Below are positions 1-9,102 of a stretch of DNA of 9,102 nt, piece after piece. The stretch lies in the IMG/VR virus record IMGVR_UViG_2547132281_000003, positions 1 to 9,102 of that record; one strand, written 5' to 3'. Position numbers and translations under genes: made by a program. The notes under the pieces are model-generated. The model did not search any database, was not told where the DNA came from, and saw only the letters and a program-made list of their open reading frames with translations. Numbering within the stretch: position 1 is the first letter of the stretch; the number at the start of each line of letters is the position of its first letter. Source of the DNA: a virus. Its lineage: Duplodnaviria; Heunggongvirae; Uroviricota; Caudoviricetes.

Positions 1-648
1 ATGAAACACCGGACCTGGATCACTGAAGCTTTACGTCTTCACTTTGAAGAACATTTACCCCGGGTTGTGGCCGGGCGTCGCCTGGGTGTACCAAAATCAA
101 CAGTTTGTAGTATGTTCGTGCGCTTTCGGAGAGCTGGCCTTTCGTGGCCTTTGCCCGCAGGCATGTCGGAGCAGGAACTTGATGCCTGCCTTTACGGACA
201 ATTTTCCACGGTACCAGTCGTACGTCCTGAAAGCACCGTTATATCCGAAGCCCCCGTGGTAAAAAAACGTCCCCGGCGGCCCAACTTCCCTTATGAGTTT
301 AAAATCGCCTTAGTGGAGCAGTCACTGCAGCCCGGAGCCTGTGTGGCGCAGATCGCCCGGGAAAACGGAATCAACGATAACCTGCTCTTCAACTGGCGCC
401 ATCAATACCGGAAAGGTGGCCTGCTGCCTTCCGGAAAAAATATGCCGGCACTGCTTCCCGTGACGTTAACGCCGGAGCCGGATAATAAAATCCCGGCCCC
501 CGCACAGGAACCAGAGCAGATAAATACACCGTCCGACAGTCTGTGTTGTGAGCTGGTTCTGCCGGCCGGAACTCTCAGGCTTAAAGGTAAACTGACGCCG
601 GCGTTATTACAGACACTTATCCGCGAAATAAAAGGGAGCAGCCACTGA
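1..648 (+). CDS. tnpA: IS66-family accessory protein TnpA (orf1) with an extra ~85-aa N-terminal helix-turn-helix-like region
   Basis: The C-terminal ~130 aa (PNFPYEFKIALVEQSL...ENGINDNLLFNWRHQYRKG) aligns with the orf1 of copy 2 at 2726..3127. Its TGA stop (646-648) overlaps the tnpB ATG (648-650). The N-terminal segment (GRRLGVPKSTVCSMFVRFRRAGLSWPLP) has no counterpart in copy 2. Confidence 0.75.
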   Translation: MKHRTWITEALRLHFEEHLPRVVAGRRLGVPKSTVCSMFVRFRRAGLSWPLPAGMSEQELDACLYGQFSTVPVVRPESTVISEAPVVKKRPRRPNFPYEFKIALVEQSLQPGACVAQIARENGINDNLLFNWRHQYRKGGLLPSGKNMPALLPVTLTPEPDNKIPAPAQEPEQINTPSDSLCCELVLPAGTLRLKGKLTPALLQTLIREIKGSSH

Positions 649-995
649 TGATATCTCTCCCTGCAGGTTCGCGTATCTGGCTGGTTGCAGGTATCACCGA
701 TATGCGAAATGGCTTTAACGGCCTGGCATCAAAAGTTCAGAACGTCCTGAAGGATGACCCGTTCTCCGGACACCTGTTCATCTTCCGCGGACGCCGGGGT
801 GACCAGATAAAAGTGTTGTGGGCTGACAGTGACGGACTGTGCCTCTTCACCAAACGCCTGGAGCGGGGCCGCTTCGTCTGGCCAGTCACCCGTGACGGCA
901 AGGTGCACCTTACTCCGGCTCAGTTATCCATGCTTCTTGAAGGTATCAACTGGAAGCACCCGAAACGAACGGAACGCGCTGGAATCCGCATATAA
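648..995 (+). CDS. tnpB: IS66-family TnpB (orf2), 115 aa
   Basis: Typical IS66 orf2 sequence ([16 protein letters not shown]...LFIFRGRRGDQIKVLW...KRLERGRF). It is highly similar to the 115-aa ORF at 3124..3471 and is start/stop coupled to tnpA. Confidence 0.9.
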   Translation: MISLPAGSRIWLVAGITDMRNGFNGLASKVQNVLKDDPFSGHLFIFRGRRGDQIKVLWADSDGLCLFTKRLERGRFVWPVTRDGKVHLTPAQLSMLLEGINWKHPKRTERAGIRI

Positions 996-1014
996 CCCGT
1001 TGTAAAGTGAGGAT

Positions 1015-2586
1015 ATGGACACCTCACTTGCTCATGAGAACGCCCGCCTGCGGGCACTGTTGCAGACGCAACAGGACACCATCCGCCAGATGGCTGAATA
1101 CAACCGCCTGCTCTCACAGCGGGTGGCGGCTTATGCTTCCGAAATCAACCGGCTGAAGGCGCTGGTTGCGAAACTGCAGCGCATGCAGTTCGGTAAAAGC
1201 TCAGAAAAACTTCGTGCAAAAACCGAACGGCAGATACAGGAAGCACAGGAGCGAATCAGCGCACTTCAGGAAGAAATGGCGGAAACGCTGGGTGAGCAAT
1301 ATGACCCGGTACTGCCATCCGCCCTGCGCCAGTCTTCAGCCCGTAAACCGTTACCGGCCTCACTTCCCCGTGAAACCCGGGTTATCCGGCCGGAAGAGGA
1401 ATGCTGTCCTGCCTGTGGTGGTGAACTCAGTTCTCTGGGATGTGATGTGTCAGAGCAACTGGAGCTTATCAGCAGCGCCTTTAAGGTTATCGAAACACAA
1501 CGTCCGAAACAGGCCTGTTGCCGGTGCGACCATATCGTGCAGGCACCAGTACCTTCAAAACCCATTGCACGCAGTTATGCCGGAGCGGGGCTTCTGGCCC
1601 ATGTTGTCACCGGGAAATATGCAGACCATCTGCCGTTATACCGCCAGTCAGAAATATACCGTCGTCAGGGAGTGGAGCTGAGCCGTGCCACACTGGGGCG
1701 CTGGACAGGTGCTGTTGCTGAACTGCTGGAGCCGCTGTATGACGTCCTGCGCCAGTATGTGCTGATGCCCGGTAAAGTCCATGCTGATGATATCCCCGTC
1801 CCGGTCCAGGAGCCGGGCAGCGGTAAAACCCGGACAGCCCGGCTGTGGGTCTACGTCCGTGATGACCGTAACGCCGGTTCACAGATGCCCCCGGCGGTCT
1901 GGTTCGCGTACAGTCCGGACCGGAAAGGTATCCATCCACAAAATCACCTGGCCGGTTACAGCGGTGTGCTTCAGGCCGATGCTTACGGTGGTTACCGGGC
2001 GTTATACGAATCCGGCAGAATAACGGAAGCCGCGTGTATGGCTCATGCCCGGAGAAAAATCCACGATGTGCATGCAAGAGCGCCCACCGACATCACCACG
2101 GAAGCCCTGCAGCGTATCGGTGAACTGTATGCCATCGAGGCAGAGGTCCGGGGCTGTTCAGCAGAACAGCGTCTGGCGGCAAGAAAAGCCAGAGCCGCGC
2201 CACTGATGCAGTCACTGTATGACTGGATACAGCAACAGATGAAAACACTGTCGCGTCACTCAGATACGGCAAAAGCGTTCGCATACCTGCTGAAACAGTG
2301 GGATGCACTGAACGTGTACTGCAGTAATGGCTGGGTGGAAATCGACAACAACATCGCAGAGAACGCCTTACGGGGAGTGGCCGTAGGCCGGAAAAACTGG
2401 ATGTTCGCGGGTTCCGACAGCGGTGGTGAACATGCGGCGGTGTTGTACTCGCTGATCGGCACATGCCGTCTGAACAATGTGGAGCCAGAAAAGTGGCTGC
2501 GTTACGTCATTGAACATATCCAGGACTGGCCGGCAAACCGGGTACGCGATCTGTTGCCCTGGAAAGTTGATCTGAGCTCTCAGTAA
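1015..2586 (+). CDS. tnpC: IS66-family DDE transposase TnpC (orf3), 523 aa, ISEc8-like
   Basis: N-terminal leucine-zipper-like coiled coil, CxxC...CxxC zinc finger (CCPACGG...CCRCDH), and DDE-region motifs [14 protein letters not shown] and [16 protein letters not shown] Shine-Dalgarno sits at 1007-1011. Confidence 0.92.
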
Positions 2587-2590
2587 ATAT

Positions 2591-2616
2591 CAATACGGTT
2601 CTGACGAGTCGCTTAC
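2591..2616. repeat. Right terminal inverted repeat of IS66 copy 1
   Basis: CAATACGGTTCTGACGAGTCGCTTAC closely matches the right end of copy 2 (5071..5096) and ends with CGCTTAC. Confidence 0.7.
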
Positions 2617-2646
2617 GATTATCAAGCTCAATTATAACTTTTTCCA

Positions 2647-2654
2647 TTTTCCAC
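2647..2654. repeat. Target-site duplication (left copy), TTTTCCAC
   Basis: The 8 bp immediately left of the GTAAGCG terminus at 2655 are identical to the 8 bp immediately right of the CGCTTAC terminus (5097..5104). An 8-bp duplication is characteristic of the IS66 family. Confidence 0.85.
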
Positions 2655-2680
2655 GTAAGCGTACAGCCTGAACCGTCTGG
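2655..2680. repeat. Left terminal inverted repeat of IS66 copy 2
   Basis: Starts GTAAGCGT; it pairs with the reverse complement of 5071..5096 (GTAAGCGTGCAGCAAGAACCGT...) with a few mismatches. Confidence 0.75.
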
Positions 2681-2746
2681 TCAGAATCTGACAAATTAGA
2701 CAAAGTGGTGTCCACCAAATAAGTAGTGGGAACCAAAGTGTCAGAT

Positions 2747-3127
2747 ATGCAGAAAAATGTGACTCCCGGCAGGCGAAAAGGCTGCCCTAATTATCCTCCC
2801 GAATTTAAACAGCAGCTCGTTGCTGCCTCCTGTGAACCCGGGATATCCATCTCAAAACTTGCTCTTGAAAATGGCATTAACGCCAATCTGTTGTTCAAAT
2901 GGCGACAACAATGGCGCGAGGGAAAGCTGCTATTACCTTCTTCAGAGAGCCCCCAGCTACTTCCTGTGACTCTCGATGCAGCTGCCGAACAGCCAGAATC
3001 GCTCGCAGAGGACCCGGAAACCCTCAGTATCAGCTGTGAGGTAACGTTCCGGCACGGGACGCTCCGCTTCAATGGCAATGTCAGCGAAAAGCTCCTGACT
3101 CTGCTGATACAGGAACTGAAGCGATGA
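2747..3127 (+). CDS. tnpA: IS66-family TnpA (orf1); the ORF track begins at GTG 2726, the first ATG is at 2747
   Basis: Conserved orf1 core (YPPEFKQQLVAASCEPGISISKLALENGINANLLFKWRQQWREGK) parallels the copy 1 orf1. The stop and the tnpB start overlap as ATGA (3124-3127). Confidence 0.8.
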   Translation: MQKNVTPGRRKGCPNYPPEFKQQLVAASCEPGISISKLALENGINANLLFKWRQQWREGKLLLPSSESPQLLPVTLDAAAEQPESLAEDPETLSISCEVTFRHGTLRFNGNVSEKLLTLLIQELKR

Positions 3128-3471
3128 TCCCGTTACCTTCCGGGACCAAAATTTGGCTGGTTGCCGGTATCACCGATATGAGAAATGGCTTCAACGGCCT
3201 GGCTGCGAAAGTACAAACGGCGCTGAAAGACGATCCCATGTCCGGCCATGTTTTCATTTTCCGGGGCCGCAGCGGCAGTCAGGTTAAACTGCTGTGGTCC
3301 ACCGGTGACGGACTGTGCCTCCTGACCAAACGGCTGGAGCGTGGGCGCTTCGCCTGGCCGTCAGCCCGTGATGGCAAAGTGTTCCTTACGCAGGCGCAGC
3401 TGGCGATGCTGCTGGAAGGTATCGACTGGCGACAGCCCAAGCGGTTGCTGACCTCCCTGACCATGCTGTAA
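3124..3471 (+). CDS. tnpB: IS66-family TnpB (orf2), 115 aa
   Basis: Same length as the copy 1 TnpB and similar over most of it ([18 protein letters not shown]...TKRLERGRF), with its ATG in the ATGA overlap with the tnpA stop. Confidence 0.9.
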
Positions 3472-3496
3472 ATCTCTTTATCCTGGTTGTCACAGA

Positions 3497-3522
3497 ATAA
3501 GCCCGGTAAAATACGGGCTTAT
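3497..3522 (+). promoter_or_regulatory. Stem-loop overlapping the tnpC start codon of IS copy 2 (possible translational control)
   Basis: ATAAGCCCG (3497-3505) and CGGGCTTAT (3514-3522) are perfect 9-bp inverted arms around an 8-nt loop. The second arm contains the AT of the tnpC ATG (3521-3523), and no obvious Shine-Dalgarno precedes it. Confidence 0.4.
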
Positions 3523-5059
3523 GAACGACATCTCTTCTGACGACATCTTCCTGCTGAAACAGCGCCTGGCCGAACAGGAAGCGCTGATCCACGCCCTGCA
3601 GGAAAAGCTGAGCAACCGGGAGCGCGAAATAGACCATCTGCAGGCGCAGCTGGATAAACTCCGCCGGATGAACTTCGGCAGTCGTTCCGAAAAAGTCTCC
3701 CGCCGTATCGCACAAATGGAAGCCGATCTGAACCGGCTTCAGAAAGAGAGCGATACGCTGACTGGTAGGGTGTATGACCCGGCTGTACAGCGTCCGTTGC
3801 GTCAGACCCGCACCCGTAAGCCGTTCCCTGAATCACTACCCCGTGACGAAAAGCGACTGTTGCCTGCGGCGCCGTGCTGCCCGAACTGCGGCGGTTCACT
3901 GAGCTATCTGGGCGAGGATACCGCCGAACAGCTGGAGTTGATGCGTAGTGCCTTCCGGGTTATCCGGACGGTACGGGAAAAACATGCCTGTACTCAGTGC
4001 GATGCCATCGTGCAGGCACCTGCACCTTCGCGGCCCATCGAGCGGGGTATCGCCGGACCGGGGCTGCTGGCCCGCGTGCTGACCTCGAAGTATGCAGAGC
4101 ACACCCCGCTGTATCGCCAGTCAGAAATATACGGCCGGCAAGGTGTGGAGCTGAGCCGTTCACTGCTGTCGGGCTGGGTGGATGCATGCTGCCGGCTGCT
4201 GTCTCCGCTGGAAGAGGCGCTTCATGGCTATGTCATGACTGACGGCAAACTCCATGCCGATGATACCCCGGTCCAGGTACTGCTGCCGGGTAATAAGAAG
4301 ACGAAGACCGGGCGGTTGTGGGCGTATGTTCGTGATGACCGCAATGCCGGGTCAGCGTTGGCACCTGCAGTGTGGTTCGCTTACAGCCCGGACAGAAAAG
4401 GCATCCATCCGCAGACTCATCTTGCCTGCTTCAGCGGTGTGCTGCAAGCGGATGCGTACGCCGGGTTCAACGAGCTGTATCGCAATGGTGGGATAACGGA
4501 AGCTGCCTGCTGGGCTCATGCCCGCCGAAAGATCCACGATGTGCACGTCCGCATCCCGTCAGCACTGACGGAAGAAGCCCTGGAGCAGATCGGTCAGTTG
4601 TACGCCATAGAGGCGGATATAAGGGGAATGCCGGCAGAGCAGCGGCTTGCTGAACGTCAGCGAAAAACGAAACCGCTGTTGAAATCCCTGGAAAGCTGGT
4701 TGCGTGAAAAGATGAAAACCCTGTCGCGACACTCAGAACTGGCGAAAGCGTTCGCATACGCCCTGAACCAGTGGCCGGCGCTGACGTACTATGCAGATGA
4801 TGGCTGGGCTGAGGCGGACAATAACATCGCTGAAAATGCGTTGCGGATGGTCAGTCTGGGCCGCAAAAACTACCTGTTCTTCGGTTCGGATCATGGAGGA
4901 GAGCGGGGAGCGCTGCTGTACAGCCTGATCGGGACGTGCAAACTGAACGGAGTGGAGCCAGAAAGCTACCTCCGCTATGTCCTTGACGTCATAGCCGACT
5001 GGCCGATAAACCGGGTCGGCGAACTGCTCCCCTGGCGCGTAGCACTGCCGACTGAATAA
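3521..5059 (+). CDS. tnpC: IS66-family DDE transposase TnpC (orf3), 512 aa
   Basis: Coiled-coil N-terminus, zinc finger (CCPNCGG...CTQCD), and motifs [14 protein letters not shown] and [10 protein letters not shown]. It is collinear with the copy 1 TnpC but clearly divergent from it. Confidence 0.92.
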
Positions 5060-5070
5060 CACATCCCCGT

Positions 5071-5096
5071 CAATACGGTTCTTGCTGCACGCTTAC
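5071..5096. repeat. Right terminal inverted repeat of IS66 copy 2
   Basis: CAATACGGTTCTTGCTGCACGCTTAC; ends with CGCTTAC and is followed directly by the TTTTCCAC duplication. Confidence 0.75.
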
Positions 5097-5104
5097 TTTT
5101 CCAC
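5097..5104. repeat. Target-site duplication (right copy), TTTTCCAC
   Basis: Identical to 2647..2654. Confidence 0.85.
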
Positions 5105-5197
5105 CAACCTGTCCAACTTTAAAAAGTTACTTTTAAGTATATGATAAACATAGTTTATTAAACGTGATCCACTACTTTTAATGAAGAATATTCCCCA

Positions 5198-5233
5198 AAA
5201 CAGAAAGCCCCTCGACTGAGGGGCTTTCTGTTT
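5198..5233 (-). terminator. Intrinsic (potentially bidirectional) terminator hairpin immediately downstream of ogr
   Basis: AAACAGAAAGCCCCTC-GACT-GAGGGGCTTTCTGTTT is a perfect 16-bp inverted repeat with a 4-nt loop and a GC-rich stem, flanked by A-rich and T-rich runs. It lies 4 nt beyond the ogr stop. Confidence 0.75.
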
Positions 5234-5237
5234 GTAA

Positions 5238-5456
5238 TTACATCCACATAATTTGCTGCCCTGACGGCAACGGGTGCGGCCTCACGGCGTGGACTTCTCC
5301 CGGCTTCACGATGTATCGCTGTACCGACTCATAAGTGATGAACGTGGCGCTGCAATTCACGTTCTGGCACTGGTGATAACGCTCTTTTGTCGTGTCAGTG
5401 ATATAGCGACTTGTACGCGCATGTGCGGCATGCTGGCATAAAGGACAATGAAACAT
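5238..5456 (-). CDS. ogr: Ogr/Delta-family zinc-finger late-gene transcriptional activator, 72 aa
   Basis: MFHCPLCQHAAHARTSRYITDTTKERYHQCQNVNCSATF... matches phage P2 Ogr as I remember it, with the four zinc-binding Cys. A GGAAGAGG Shine-Dalgarno precedes the ATG at 5456. The 99-aa ORF in the track (start 5537) is an upstream in-frame extension. Confidence 0.93.
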   Translation of the reverse strand: MFHCPLCQHAAHARTSRYITDTTKERYHQCQNVNCSATFITYESVQRYIVKPGEVHAVRPHPLPSGQQIMWM

Positions 5457-5536
5457 CGCGAGCACCTCTTCCGGTTTTGTTAATGGTGCCATTTTATTTA
5501 ATTTATCCTTATAAAACAAACAGATAAAACAAAGCA
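5457..5536 (-). promoter_or_regulatory. Probable ogr promoter and ribosome-binding region (D-ogr intergenic)
   Basis: AT-rich 80-bp spacer between the D stop and the ogr start, with TTGTTT...TATAAG-like elements on the minus strand. This is a by-eye assignment only. Confidence 0.35.
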
Positions 5537-6700
5537 TTAATCATCATCTTCTGTTTCGTACTCCACATCAGAAAGCCTGACCTCAAGCTCTAAGGACGTC
5601 GTGAAGCCGCTATTATTCAGAAAATGTGTCACCTTAGTGATTGTCCAGTCCTGCTCGTCTATGACGCGCTTAAAGCCTGACACTCTGACCGGTGTTTCCG
5701 TGTAAATATCAGCACGACCAGTGGCAAGGCTGATGGAGAACTCCGCAACGCCCCGTTGCAGTTTATCCCACTTCGCCTGAGCGGCGCGCATGGCCTGCGC
5801 TTTCGTGGCATATACCGTAGTCAGGGCAAAAACGTTGTCAGCCTCACCGGCCATGTATTCACCTTCGCGCGCTTCCGGTACTTTTGGCGCTTTCTTCTGC
5901 GTGACCGGTTTTGCTTTCGGGTGCTCCAGTGCGCGCAGGTGTTTTTCTTTCTTTTTGCGTTTCAGTTTTACCTTCTGCTTTTGTGGTTTCGGGTCTTTGG
6001 TGTGTAACCACTTTGCCGTTACGCCGGTATAGGCTCCACGGTCAGCAATCGCAAAATGATGGCGGTCGCCGTCGCTGCGGGTTATGGTGACCTGCGGGAT
6101 TTTTTTACCGCTGGCCGTCACCCCCTGCCCCGCTTTGAGAAACAACAGTTTTCCCATTTTTACCGAGACCTCACCGCCGTTGCGTTCTGCAAGACGGGTC
6201 AGGAATTTCGCATCAGACTCCTGCGACTGGTCGATGTGCGGGATTTTAATTCCGGCCAGTGACGGAGCGACACTGGCTTCCAGCCTGTTACGGGAGGCTA
6301 TCGCCTCAACAATCGCACCGAGCGTGGTGTCATGCCAGGAGCCTTCCCGGCGGGAATTGAGCGTCCCGCGAAAATCTGCACTCCGGGCGCGGATGGTGAC
6401 CACATCCGGAGCGCCCCGGTGTTCAACCTCATCAACGGTAAATTTCCCTTTGCATACCAGGGCAAAACCTTTCCAGCCGATATAAACCGTCAGGACAGCG
6501 CCACGAACCGGCAGCCCGACCTGCCCGTCGGCATCGTTCAGTTCAATATCAAGCTGGTCAGCCTCAAAGCCCCGGTTATCCGTCAGGGTCATACTCATCA
6601 GACGGTCGCTGATATTGCCGGTAATATCCCTGCTGTCGAGCATCAGCATGTAATCCGGCGTCAGCGTACTGCCTGCATCAAATGTCAGCGCATCCAGCAT
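5537..6700 (-). CDS. D: P2 gpD-like tail protein (late control gene D), 387 aa, apparently full length
   Basis: Length and sequence match P2 gpD as I remember it (MLDALTFDAGSTLTPDYMLMLDSRDITGNISDRLMSMTL...). Its start overlaps the stop of the upstream U-like ORF (TAATG). Confidence 0.92.
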   Translation of the reverse strand: MLDALTFDAGSTLTPDYMLMLDSRDITGNISDRLMSMTLTDNRGFEADQLDIELNDADGQVGLPVRGAVLTVYIGWKGFALVCKGKFTVDEVEHRGAPDVVTIRARSADFRGTLNSRREGSWHDTTLGAIVEAIASRNRLEASVAPSLAGIKIPHIDQSQESDAKFLTRLAERNGGEVSVKMGKLLFLKAGQGVTASGKKIPQVTITRSDGDRHHFAIADRGAYTGVTAKWLHTKDPKPQKQKVKLKRKKKEKHLRALEHPKAKPVTQKKAPKVPEAREGEYMAGEADNVFALTTVYATKAQAMRAAQAKWDKLQRGVAEFSISLATGRADIYTETPVRVSGFKRVIDEQDWTITKVTHFLNNSGFTTSLELEVRLSDVEYETEDDD

Positions 6701-7047
6701 TATCCCGCCCCCGTCATACCCGTGAATCTGGTCGCCATACTGCCAGCCTTACCGATGAGCGATTCCGCCTGTTTACCGATATCGCCATAAAGCGCGGCCA
6801 GTGATTCATCAACGCGGGTGAGTGACAGCGTAAAATCAATTTTCCGGGGTGTGCCGTCTGCAAAGAAAATACTCCCTGTTTCACTCACCCTGCTGATGAC
6901 ATACATGCCGTAAATCATGCCGGTGCCATCCAGCAACGGCCACGCCCGTCCCTCCTCTGCCATCAGCCTGAGCGTGGTCATCGTCAGCTTGCCGCCGGTC
7001 AGTTCGGGATAAAGCACACCGGCCAGCGTCATGTTTTCCTCACCCAC
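6700..7047 (-). CDS. U: P2 gpU-like tail protein, probably N-terminally truncated (possible pseudogene)
   Basis: The C-terminal ~110 aa (TLAGVLYPELTGGKLTMTTLRLMAEEGRAWPLLDGTGMIYG...) resemble gpU. The track start is a GTG at 7047; the first ATG is at 7030-7032. The same frame stays open upstream to a stop at 7108-7110. My recollection is that P2 gpU is about 159 aa, so roughly 25-50 N-terminal residues appear to be missing. Confidence 0.65.
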   Translation of the reverse strand: MGEENMTLAGVLYPELTGGKLTMTTLRLMAEEGRAWPLLDGTGMIYGMYVISRVSETGSIFFADGTPRKIDFTLSLTRVDESLAALYGDIGKQAESLIGKAGSMATRFTGMTGAG

Positions 7048-7637
7048 ACCGAGAAACTGGTAGGCATCCCGTTTGCAGAATATGCCTGCCTCGTGGTCAT
7101 CTGTCCTTTACGGTATTTTTTCCAGTAAAGCGGGGAAATATTGAAAGCACGTGCAGCGCCAGCAACATGACCATAGAGGTGAGCCTGCGCCTCATCCGTA
7201 AACAGCGATTCTTTCTCGCCATGCGCATCCACCCAGGCATCGCTGAGTTCCTCATACATCATGAAAAGCTGCGATGAGATACGGGCGGCAAACTTTTTCA
7301 GCTCCTTGTCATTCATTCCCGGCAGGCGCGCATAGTGGTCACGCTCAGCCAGAACCCCCATCCACAAAAGCCATGCATCACGCTGTTCAACCGGTCGGTT
7401 ATAAAACGCCTCACGTACAGCGCGATTAAACTCAGGAATGAAAACCCATTTTTCACCGGCACGAGCCTTCGGTTTGCAAGGATCACGCAATTCAATAATT
7501 GGTAATTTATTTGCCTTCACCATTTCACTGACAGCTGTCTTTGGCTTCCCTAATAAATCAGCAAATTTATCCACATGAACCGCATCAAGCGGATACTGAA
7601 TCACATAATTTTCAGCGTCCATATATGGTACCCTCAT
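7029..7637 (-). CDS. cox: Cox-like (P2 excisionase / early-promoter repressor family) N-terminal domain fused to a ~100-aa C-terminal extension of unknown origin, 202 aa
   Basis: Residues ~10-97 (YPLDAVHVDKFADLLGKPKTAVSEMVKANKLPIIELRDP...ARAGEKWVFIPEFN...QRDAWLLWMG) parallel P2 Cox (91 aa) as I remember it. Residues ~100-202 have no match I recognise. It is divergent from the C repressor gene, and its TGA overlaps the first ATG of the U fragment as ATGA. Confidence 0.6.
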   Translation of the reverse strand: MRVPYMDAENYVIQYPLDAVHVDKFADLLGKPKTAVSEMVKANKLPIIELRDPCKPKARAGEKWVFIPEFNRAVREAFYNRPVEQRDAWLLWMGVLAERDHYARLPGMNDKELKKFAARISSQLFMMYEELSDAWVDAHGEKESLFTDEAQAHLYGHVAGAARAFNISPLYWKKYRKGQMTTRQAYSANGMPTSFSVWVRKT

Positions 7638-7758
7638 AGGATCCAGCCCTTTCTAAACCACTCAAAACCGTTTAGACGCTGGTTTATTCTCAAATCAATG
7701 GAACCTATATAGGTTCCAGTTTTGAGGGAATTTAGTCCCTATATAGGCACCATGTCAA
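7638..7758. promoter_or_regulatory. Immunity switch region between the divergent cox-like and C genes, with candidate promoters and operators
   Basis: AT-rich 121-bp spacer containing an 18-bp perfect palindrome GGAACCTATATAGGTTCC (7700-7717), a second copy of its CCTATATAGG core (7738-7747), a related CCTCATAGG at the cox start (7632-7640), and a TAAACCA...TGGTTTA inverted pair (7653-7686). Confidence 0.5.
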
Positions 7759-8052
7759 ATGAAATTAAGCGAAAAGATTAAGGCCTTGCGTGAGGCTGAA
7801 GGGCTAAGCCAATCAAAATTCTGTGAAATCATAGAGTTACCGCTAAGCACACTTAAAAAATATGAAGGAGGAAACTTTGAACCCGGTGGCACAGCTTTGC
7901 TAAAAATCACTATGCATCCCACATTCCAAAAATATGCTCTATGGCTTATGACAGATAAAACCGCGCCGGACGCAGGACAAATCGCACCGGCTCTCGCGCA
8001 CATTGGGCCAGAGTCAACAGAGTCCAACCACTCCGCGAAAAGGATTGGCTAA
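7759..8052 (+). CDS. C: P2 C-type immunity repressor (helix-turn-helix), 97 aa
   Basis: LSEKI...LSQ..., the helix-turn-helix region, and the C-terminal ...TPxFxKYxLWxMT...APxxGQIAPALAH... segment match P2 repressor C as I remember it. It lies directly upstream of int, as in P2. Confidence 0.85.
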   Translation: MKLSEKIKALREAEGLSQSKFCEIIELPLSTLKKYEGGNFEPGGTALLKITMHPTFQKYALWLMTDKTAPDAGQIAPALAHIGPESTESNHSAKRIG

Positions 8053-8121
8053 CTCTATATAAAGATTACATTTTCACCATTTGCTACCAAGATGGTGAAT
8101 ACAGCGCCGGAGGGCTTTCTT

Positions 8122-9102
8122 ATGGCAATTAAGAAGCTCGATGATGGTCGCTATGAAGTGGACATTAGACCTCGCGGTCGCGACGGAAAACGCATCCGCA
8201 GGAAATTCGAAAGAAAAGCTGAAGCACTAGCATTTGAGCGATACACAATCGCCAATGCCAGTCAGAAAGAATGGGGAGGCCAGCGAGCAGACCGCCGGAC
8301 TTTGAGTGAGTTGCTGGACATCTGGTGGAAATATCACGGGCAAAACCACGAGCATGGAACAAAAGAGTTTAATCATCTACTCAAAACCATCAGCGGCATA
8401 GGTGATATACCAGTGAGCAGGATGAGCAAAAGGGCTTTGATGGATTATCGTTCCATGCGACTACGTGATGGTATCAGTGCCGCAACGATAAACCGTGACA
8501 TGTACCGATTATCCGGCATGTTCACAAAATTAATTCAATTGGATGAATTTTCCGGGCAACACCCAATTCACGGACTGCCGCCACTGGCGGAGGCCAACCC
8601 TGAAATGACGTTCCTGGAAAAAGCAGAAATCGAAAAACTGTTAAATGTTTTGGCTGGTGATGACTTACTTGTCGCGCTTTTATGTCTGAGCACTGGAGGA
8701 AGATGGACGGAAGTTGCCACGCTAAAACCAGCACAGATTACAAATTGCAGGGTTACCTTCCTGAAAACCAAAAACGGTAAAAAGCGAACCGTGCCGATTT
8801 CTGAGGAACTGGAGAAAAAAGTTAAAGAGGAGGCCAGCGCCAAATTATTCAAAGTTGATTATGAGAAATTTTGCGGGATTTTACGCAGAGTGAAACCTGA
8901 TATACCACCCAATCAGGCAACCCACATCCTGCGGCATACATTCGCAAGCCATTTCATGATGAATGGGGGCAATATAATCGCACTGCAACAGATTCTGGGA
9001 CATGCGAGCATTCAGCAGACGATGGCCTATGCGCACCTTGCGCCTGACTATCTGCAAAATGCCGTCGCTCTGAATCCACTAAAAGGCGGAGTGACGTTAT
9101 AA
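8122..9102 (+). CDS. int: P2-type tyrosine integrase (site-specific recombinase)
   Basis: MAIKKLDDGRYEVDIRP... matches the P2 Int N-terminus as I remember it. The catalytic region has HxLRH and a C-terminal Tyr (ATHILRHTFASHF...QTMAYAHL). A GGAGGG Shine-Dalgarno lies 7 nt upstream of ATG 8122; the track ORF starts 30 nt earlier at 8092. The stop is the last codon of the window. Confidence 0.93.
   Translation: MAIKKLDDGRYEVDIRPRGRDGKRIRRKFERKAEALAFERYTIANASQKEWGGQRADRRTLSELLDIWWKYHGQNHEHGTKEFNHLLKTISGIGDIPVSRMSKRALMDYRSMRLRDGISAATINRDMYRLSGMFTKLIQLDEFSGQHPIHGLPPLAEANPEMTFLEKAEIEKLLNVLAGDDLLVALLCLSTGGRWTEVATLKPAQITNCRVTFLKTKNGKKRTVPISEELEKKVKEEASAKLFKVDYEKFCGILRRVKPDIPPNQATHILRHTFASHFMMNGGNIIALQQILGHASIQQTMAYAHLAPDYLQNAVALNPLKGGVTL

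Follow-up and report, generated by a model that had tools for sequence, protein, structure and literature searches.

The window analysed here is a stretch of 9,102 nt from AELE01000001.1 (the source contig), part of the draft assembly GCA_000166615.2. All positions are window coordinates, negative values lying to the left of the window start within the source contig. Two IS66-family elements, labelled IS1 (the neighbouring ISCro1-type element) and IS2 (the element at 2655-5096), lie at one end of a P2-like prophage remnant, and the features are the following.

1..2616 in the window, + strand: IS1, ISCro1-type, IS66 family (Pfam, NCBIfam; source contig)
1-648 in the window: IS1 tnpA, annotated start 30 bp upstream
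648-995: IS1 tnpB
1015-2586: IS1 tnpC
ending at 2616: IS1 right inverted repeat
2617..2624, no strand: right copy of the 8-bp IS1 target duplication, GATTATCA; its left counterpart is found beyond the window edge and abuts the left end of IS1
2617..2647, - strand: start of a disrupted 213-aa accessory gene (WP_000416606.1, PD-T4-10_B-like), first 31 nt, i.e. ATG, 9 codons and 1 nt
2647..2654, no strand: left copy of the IS2 target duplication, TTTTCCAC
2655..5096, + strand: IS2, complete 2442-bp ISEc8-like IS66-family element (Pfam, NCBIfam and identical copies elsewhere)
2655-2676: IS2 left inverted repeat (IRL)
2747-3127: IS2 tnpA
3124-3471: IS2 tnpB
3521-5059: IS2 tnpC
5075-5096: IS2 right inverted repeat (IRR)
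5097..5104, no strand: right copy of the IS2 target duplication, TTTTCCAC
5105..5197, no strand: AT-rich phage intergenic DNA from the accessory gene to the ogr terminator, with no att core
5198..5233, no strand: ogr terminator hairpin, perfect 16-bp arms and 4-nt loop
5238..5456, - strand: ogr, 72 aa, Ogr/Delta zinc finger (Pfam; the collinear locus is annotated as ogrK)
5537-6700, - strand: gpD
up to the deletion junction 7074/7075, - strand: gpU, 5'-truncated (gpD and gpU block, 5537..7074)
7075-7354: fragment of replication gene A, 280 bp, fused in frame to cox
7029-7622, - strand: cox/A-fragment fusion ORF (Cox-A')
7759-8052, + strand: repressor C
8122-9102, + strand: integrase

Elements of the IS66 family have imperfect terminal inverted repeats of ~20-30 bp beginning with GTAAGCG and generate an 8-bp duplication. 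The terminal repeats of IS2 are 22 nt long and 86% complementary, each beginning with GTAAGCG (GTAAGCG…CGCTTAC ends), and TTTTCCAC is found on both sides of the element. Its tnpA, tnpB and tnpC genes are consecutive and all intact according to Pfam (HTH_Tnp_1; TnpB_IS66; LZ_Tnp_IS66, zf-IS66, DDE_Tnp_IS66 and DDE_Tnp_IS66_C) and NCBIfam (equivalogs IS66 TnpA, TnpB and transpos_IS66, each above its cutoff), with an IS66-type DDE transposase in TnpC. Copies 100% identical to IS2 are present in ETEC H10407 and other strains. A further copy, whose TnpC is labelled 'ISEc8 family' by PGAP, is 97.2% identical to IS2, with 496 of 512 TnpC residues the same. ISEc8, found in E. coli O157:H7 and many other E. 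coli, shares with IS2 the tnpA-tnpB-tnpC order, the GTAAGCG termini and the 8-bp duplication; the divergence of ~3% refers to the PGAP-labelled copy and not to the ISfinder reference. Unlike that of the ISEc8-labelled copy, the TnpC of the copies 100% identical to IS2 is named only 'IS66 family transposase' by PGAP.

The neighbouring IS1 has a full length of 2699 bp, its left end being located 82 bp to the left of the window in the source contig, and its ORFs are IS66 TnpA, TnpB and TnpC, all intact (Pfam, NCBIfam). It showed 0 mismatches over 2699 positions with another copy whose TnpC is annotated by PGAP as 'IS66-like element ISCro1 family transposase', and the IS1 TnpC is identical to WP_000381379.1, which bears the same name. 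TnpC identity and the 8-bp duplication are features that IS1 has in common with the ISCro1/IS679-type IS66 elements with a long TnpA, whereas its 2699 bp differ from the 2,824 bp given for ISCro1 in ST131 (PMC8764528). The IS1 TnpA is 225 aa long with an N-terminal extension, which is absent from the IS2 TnpA. In the source contig IS1 is flanked by ...CCCAACGATTATCA/GTAACCGG on the left and CGCTTAC/GATTATCAAGC on the right (the slash marking the junction), and two other IS1 copies are likewise flanked by 8-bp duplications. The source contig thus shows that IS1, too, entered by simple insertion and has GATTATCA as its duplication.

The initial annotation had described IS2 as bounded by GTAAGCG…CGCTTAC termini and a perfect direct repeat, and this was confirmed at 2655-5096, where the two TTTTCCAC copies are perfect and each abuts an IS2 end. 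The 8-mer occurs three times in the window, the third copy (202-209) being unrelated, and the chance identity of two 8-bp flanks at fixed positions is 4^-8, or ~1.5e-5. The proposed comparison with genomes lacking the element was made with a 194-bp empty-site query, in which 2617-2654 was joined to 5105-5260 with a single TTTTCCAC. The empty site was contiguous over the full query in 86 complete E. coli genomes, with 97.9-100% identity among the matches listed. In addition, six further IS2 copies, 100% identical and located at five other sites, have perfect 8-bp duplications and the same GTAAGCG/CGCTTAC boundaries. When IS1 and IS2 were removed together with one duplication each, the resulting 1200 bp were 99.83% identical to strain 504239 without gaps, and the 213-aa ORF was restored in a form identical to that of strain 504239. 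The empty site, this reconstruction and the six other copies bear out the earlier view of IS2 as a simple and recent transposition. The distances given there also hold, as IS1 ends at 2616 and is followed by 30 bp and then the duplication, and from the IS2 end at 5096 to the ogr terminator hairpin the distance is 101 bp.

On the strand of the accessory gene, TTTTCCAC reads GTGGAAAA, which corresponds to the RBS plus the A of the ATG, the ATG being the complement of 2645-2647 according to the annotation of the intact locus and the reconstruction. IS2 thus struck the RBS and the start codon of the phage accessory gene, which encodes 213 aa and lies between ogr and attR. Transposition would have followed the route of the IS66-family DDE transposase (TnpC), with a chemistry taken from what is known of the family, and an 8-bp staggered cut at the RBS/start codon would yield the TTTTCCAC duplication. 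IS1 inserted independently 30 bp from the IS2 site, inside codon 11 of the same gene, producing GATTATCA. Either insertion by itself inactivates the gene. IS2 may be active in transposition, as its ORFs and the duplications are intact and many identical copies occupy different sites.

In this phage lineage the accessory gene is 642 bp long and lies between ogr and attR; it was uninterrupted in all 159 genomes carrying it (159/159). A gpD look-up, which brought up many intact prophages, indicated that the gene accompanies those integrated next to fieF, between cpxP and fieF, and is missing from prophages at pflB and yegQ. Its 213-aa product matched the PADLOC PD-T4-10_B models over residues 3-201 of 213 (E 1.3e-34, 7e-23 and 3e-19) and is a homologue of the PD-T4-10B toxin. 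In experiments PD-T4-10B was toxic, an effect that PD-T4-10A neutralised (PMC9519451). No other plausible ORF that could represent the PD-T4-10A antitoxin partner was found in the intact 990-bp fieF-ogr interval. Unlike the PD-T4-10 system, the gene is therefore only a solitary B-like homologue lacking the A component, and it should not be filed as such a system. A promoter scan around its start was uninformative. P2-like prophages are known to carry defence genes, the named P2 hotspots being the region from the replication endonuclease to the portal gene and Z/fun (PMC9519451), and the accessory gene lies outside both. The locus resembles other cases of IS disruption of accessory (moron/defence) genes of P2-like prophages, in which a gene at the edge is inactivated by an IS during prophage decay.

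The prophage remnant is collinear with an intact prophage and has two large internal deletions. Phage_Cox, Phage_GPA, Phage_P2_GpU, Phage_GPD, Ogr_Delta and integrase were detected by Pfam, and the P2-like character is evident from the gene order int, C, cox, A ... U, D, ogr and from the direct repeat of the att core at the ends. The Cox-A' fusion ORF, taken as the 197-aa version from the second ATG, is on record only in the source contig. The att core of 47 bp is the 3' end of the cpxP/CpxQ terminator, its overlap with the CpxQ sRNA being based on the K-12 annotation, and a copy of the core is present at each end of the prophage, one separating the accessory gene from fieF and the other beside int. 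attL (9219-9265, in the source contig) is an exact match to the core, and attR (-830..-784, ~0.8 kb before the window start) agrees with it at 46 of 47 positions, the remaining one being an N in the draft sequence. The remnant thus retains its integrase and both att cores.

These positions bear on the earlier proposal that IS2 had landed in or next to a P2-type right attachment site and had perhaps disrupted it. Pfam and collinearity confirmed the insertion to be at the ogr-proximal end of the P2-like remnant, ~100 bp past the ogr terminator, and in phage P2 itself attP closely follows ogr; both points speak for the proposal. However, in this lineage a 642-bp gene separates ogr from attR, and both cores, the exact attL and attR with 46/47 positions, are outside the IS cluster. 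The suggested search of the empty site for att cores and tRNA or sRNA ends was negative: no other match to the core with <=6 mismatches was found in the source contig, hence none in the reconstructed empty site, and tRNA and Rfam scans of the window gave no matches; Rfam did not report CpxQ on the source contig. An insertion into the attachment site is thus extremely improbable and is already refuted by the location of the cores, and the attachment sites were therefore left untouched by the insertions. IS2 lies instead between ogr and attR, in a P2-like prophage that is integrated in the cpxP/CpxQ terminator.

As previously noted, the two IS66 elements are distinct and do not result from tandem duplication, with nucleotide identities of 68-78% where alignable and protein identities of 48% (TnpA), 70% (TnpB) and 58% (TnpC). 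The term 'nested cluster' was inexact, since IS1 and IS2 lie side by side in one gene as independent insertions, each with its own duplication, separated by 30 bp and then an 8-bp duplication (38-bp spacer). Further deletion by recombination between them, which had also been suggested, is unlikely because their longest common exact run is 18 bp. Neither junction was found in any of 5426 complete E. coli genomes. Both insertions and the two large internal prophage deletions are private to the source strain and are therefore recent.

The spacing might also be explained if IS1, spacer and IS2 had moved or been acquired as a composite unit, in which case the TTTTCCAC match would be no in-situ duplication. 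The two elements have related terminal repeats, and whole-window BLAST gave IS1-type and IS2-type sequences together in many genomes. On inspection, however, these co-occurrences were arranged otherwise, IS1 being nested in an IS2-type tnpA or tnpC or located 291-342 bp away, so that a widespread IS1+IS2 unit was rejected. Moreover, the junction is absent from the complete E. coli genomes searched, and the 38-bp spacer is native sequence that continues into the outer flank on either side, with a separate duplication for each element. A common origin as a unit is vanishingly improbable and is already refuted by the reconstruction.

It is very likely that an ISEc8-like IS2 jumped onto the start of the accessory gene and that an ISCro1-type element inserted independently 30 bp away, both recently, their proximity being neutral. 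Two insertions within 30 bp in a 5-Mb genome are improbable if insertion is uniformly random. The proximity may have arisen because insertions built up neutrally in a patch of the decaying prophage that was AT-rich and already dead, to which a mild AT-rich target preference would add. The target patch (5105..5197 plus the spacer) has 28% GC, and IS2-type flanks showed a mild AT bias, with GC contents of 40% for the duplication itself, 43% over the nearest 30 bp and 48% at greater distance. A CC/GT target motif, present at 3 of 5 sites at first, failed in ~80 flanks, leaving only a weak composition bias.

The alternative that resident IS66-family elements attract IS66-family transposition complexes to their ends is suggested by the 38-bp gap itself, by an independent pair in Escherichia sp. 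MOD1-EC7003, in which an ISEc8-type left end lies 23 bp from an ISCro1-type right end, and by ISCro1-type copies nested within ISEc8-type copies at two different positions. In a survey of ~135 unique IS2-type flanks, drawn from species-representative genomes and from IMG/VR, however, no general tendency to land beside IS66 ends was observed: an IS66-type end was present within 400 bp (<=400 bp) in only 2 of the ~135, both from one IS-flooded genome, and in none of the viral-contig flanks. Pairs in the same orientation in the BLAST results are ascertainment-biased, as joined pieces come from one strand only, and an apparent preference of IS1/IS2 pairs for the same orientation was dismissed as an artefact of this joining. 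In addition, neutrality alone predicts cases of IS within IS and IS beside IS. We therefore consider such targeting very unlikely as the explanation, while the MOD1-EC7003 pair leaves room for some local attraction between IS66-family elements. Neutral accumulation with a mild AT preference appears to be the best account of the proximity, with targeting between elements less likely.

Alternatively, the double insertion might reflect selection, the toxin being harmful once the prophage had decayed. If IS2 came first, the RBS and ATG would have been left behind the IS end, as the duplication regenerates GTGGAAAATG ahead of the gene stub, and the second insertion would have completed the silencing. 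The heavily deleted prophage, the PADLOC match at E 1.3e-34, the toxicity of PD-T4-10B, which PD-T4-10A neutralises (PMC9519451), and the lack of a partner ORF at the locus would fit such a scenario. However, the gene is intact and solitary in 159/159 other genomes and is thus tolerated without a neighbouring antitoxin, a single insertion in codon 11 is enough, and toxicity of the 213-aa protein is predicted by homology, which makes selection unlikely. There is a slim chance that the ogr-attR interval of cpxQ-integrating P2-like prophages is a third, unlisted accessory/defence slot carrying a solitary PD-T4-10B-like toxin, and that the double IS66-family insertion within 30 bp (<=30 bp) of the start codon then results from selection to silence the toxin or from end-proximal targeting, and not from chance.

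The preferred reading of two independent, neutral insertions makes the arrangement ordinary IS66-family biology, of little importance apart from getting the annotation right. The locus provides a clean textbook case for the family, with two elements, two intact 8-bp duplications and the exact empty site in relatives, and the loss concerns a candidate anti-phage toxin gene, the attachment site being spared. As by-products, the att core in the CpxQ/cpxP terminator is documented and the interval between ogr and attR emerges as a possible extra cargo slot of P2-like prophages.

The initial annotation described IS2, the ISEc8-like IS66-family element at window 2655-5096 (2442 bp), as a simple, probably recent insertion bounded by a perfect direct repeat, and this observation is confirmed; the locus reflects ordinary IS biology. 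At the left junction, CGCTTAC (ending at 2616) is followed by GATTATCAAGCTCAATTATAACTTTTTCCA, TTTTCCAC and the IS2 start GTAAGCGTACAG, and at the right junction the IS2 end GCACGCTTAC is followed by TTTTCCAC and CAACCTG. The terminal inverted repeat located by a repeat finder (2655-2676 and 5075-5096) is 22 nt long and 86% complementary. The window contains three copies of TTTTCCAC, two at the IS2 ends and an unrelated one at 202-209. The empty site was rebuilt by joining 2617-2654 to 5105-5260 with a single TTTTCCAC kept, and was searched against 5,426 complete E. coli genomes. Because this 194-bp sequence is unbroken from end to end in 86 of them, such as strain 504239 (97.9-100% identity among the matches shown), the IS2 boundaries are fixed and the duplication is real. 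Six further copies 100% identical to IS2, distributed over five sites, have the same GTAAGCG/CGCTTAC ends, and all six are flanked by perfect 8-bp duplications.

The window is contained exactly in contig AELE01000001.1 (GCA_000166615.2), where IS1, the neighbouring ISCro1-type element, is 2699 bp long in full, starts 82 bp before the left edge of the window and is flanked by a separate 8-bp duplication, GATTATCA. Removal of IS1, IS2 and one copy of each duplication yielded 1200 bp that align without gaps and with 99.83% identity to strain 504239, and restored an identical 213-aa ORF. The locus is only mildly unusual, by its double strike within 30 bp and by the kind of gene disrupted. The features discussed below are as follows, in window coordinates.

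-830 to -784: attR, 46 of 47 core positions, one draft N
2617-2647, minus strand: first 31 nt of the 213-aa gene (intact copy at L002 8390-9031)
5097-7074: intergenic region, ogr, D and the 3' part of U, collinear
7075-7354: piece of replication gene A, 280 bp
7356-9102: cox, C and int
9219-9265: attL, exact 47-bp core in the source contig

In the genomes with an empty site, a P2-like prophage is placed between cpxP and fieF, with a 642-bp gene between ogr and fieF that encodes a hypothetical protein of 213 aa (WP_000416606.1). The start codon of this gene, ATG, is complementary to window 2645-2647, and the IS2 duplication read on the gene strand, GTGGAAAA, comprises the RBS and the A of the ATG. 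The gene is phage-borne, since attR falls between it and fieF. In the prophages examined, it accompanies integration in the cpxP-fieF interval and is missing from those at pflB and yegQ. No family was found for the protein in Pfam or PHROG; residues 3-201 match the PADLOC PD-T4-10_B models (E 1.3e-34). In an abortive-infection toxin-antitoxin system of two genes, PD-T4-10B acts as the toxin and PD-T4-10A neutralises its toxicity (PMC9519451). As a partner ORF does not fit into this locus, the gene is a solitary B-like gene rather than a PD-T4-10 system. PMC9519451 names two P2 defence hotspots, and the slot of this gene, between ogr and attR, belongs to neither. An IS150 is inserted between the same gene and ogr in other strains (EC-16-35, L004 9176-10545; approximately window 5215), so this short AT-rich ogr-proximal interval is struck by other IS families too.

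IS2 had been proposed to lie at, and perhaps to disrupt, the right attachment site, which proved wrong. Comparison of both prophage ends of strain 504239 with the uninterrupted cpxP-fieF interval of K-12 yielded a 47-bp att core, GACACCATCCCTGTCTTCCCCCACATGATGTGGGGGTTTTTTTTATC, repeated at both ends. The core (K-12, L014 1845-1891) overlaps the last 44 nt, at the 3' end, of cpxQ, an annotated sRNA gene corresponding to the cpxP terminator, and integration thus duplicates the 3' end of the sRNA. A search of the source contig found attL and attR, and no third match at up to 6 mismatches. As both cores are present, the attachment sites are not disrupted; attR is about 0.7-0.8 kb away from the IS site.

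Int also survives in the remnant, which has undergone two internal deletions, one between cox and A that took out about 2.1 kb and one removing everything from A to U (junctions 7354/7356 and 7074/7075). Nearly the whole of cox is fused in frame to the 280-bp A fragment in a 197-aa Cox-GPA ORF (7029-7622, minus strand), and the other side of the fragment joins a 5'-truncated gpU. The ogr terminator hairpin (5198-5233) has perfect 16-bp arms. Mechanical ORF calling gives ogr 99 aa (5238-5537, minus strand), whereas collinear genomes carry an annotated 72-aa ogrK at 5238-5456, starting with MFHCPLCQ.

Both insertions and the prophage deletions are strain-private and recent, because the IS1-spacer and spacer-IS2 junctions were found in no complete genome, the 213-aa gene is uninterrupted in all 159 of the 5426 complete E. 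coli genomes that carry it at at least 99% identity, the Cox-GPA fusion ORF is recorded in AELE01000001.1 only in the whole assembly collection, and IS1 and IS2 are each identical to copies elsewhere.

IS1 and IS2 each carry a complete IS66 set, with an HTH-bearing TnpA, TnpB_IS66 and a TnpC with leucine-zipper, zinc-finger, DDE_Tnp_IS66 and C-terminal domains. They are indeed distinct elements, with 68-78% nucleotide identity in their alignable parts and protein identities of 48% (TnpA), 70% (TnpB) and 58% (TnpC). As their longest common exact run is 18 bp, the concern that the pair might recombine was overstated. Over its full 2442 bp, IS2 is 97.2% identical to a copy whose TnpC is annotated by PGAP as 'ISEc8 family', and IS1 shows 0 mismatches over 2699 positions to a copy with an 'ISCro1 family' TnpC. 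The IS1 TnpA (window 1-648) is annotated at 225 aa, or 215 aa when counted from the first ATG within the window. Its N terminus carries about 90 aa that the 126-aa IS2 TnpA lacks, and the NCBIfam equivalogs of the two proteins differ (NF038385 and NF047595, respectively).

A conserved IS1+IS2 module, suggested by whole-window BLAST, was rejected, as the matches were different arrangements. ISCro1-type elements are nested in an ISEc8-type tnpA in ETEC E7476 (duplication GGCATTAA) and in an ISEc8-type tnpC in strain 06_3288 (duplication GACTGGTA), and the two types lie side by side 291 bp apart in DE17 and 342 bp apart in GPEC996 (nested or neighbouring cases: L001 6227-8925, L016 2614-5312, L052, L053 and L054); most of these cases come from a biased search, in which BLAST pieces were joined only if near and on the same strand. 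A less biased sample, drawn from IMG/VR and a single genome of each species, comprised 76-80 left and 57-58 right unique flanks of IS2-type elements. An IS66-type end lay no more than 400 bp away in only two of these, both in Escherichia sp. MOD1-EC7003 and one with an ISCro1-type right end 23 bp away, and in none of the viral-contig flanks from IMG/VR. End-proximal targeting as a general property was therefore rejected, the two flanks belonging to a single IS-flooded genome. In this species-representative draft, about 24 contigs contain an ISEc8-like left end, mostly at or near contig ends, with 22 distinct left-flank junctions (L023-L052), which indicates that the element has greatly expanded there.

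The most economical reading is that of two independent insertions into one AT-rich patch, the second of which would have been neutral because gene and prophage were already dead. The patch struck by both elements has 28% GC. Across flanks taken without phylogenetic de-replication, the GC content of IS2-type targets rises from 40% within the duplication to 43% over the closest 30 bp and 48% at a distance of 30-100 bp, pointing to a mild preference for AT-rich targets. On the same basis, the 8-bp duplications (L017-L165) show a weak pattern, with G at position 1 in 45%, G at position 3 in 2 of 80, A at position 5 in 50% and S at position 8 in 70%, to which TTTTCCAC is a poor fit.
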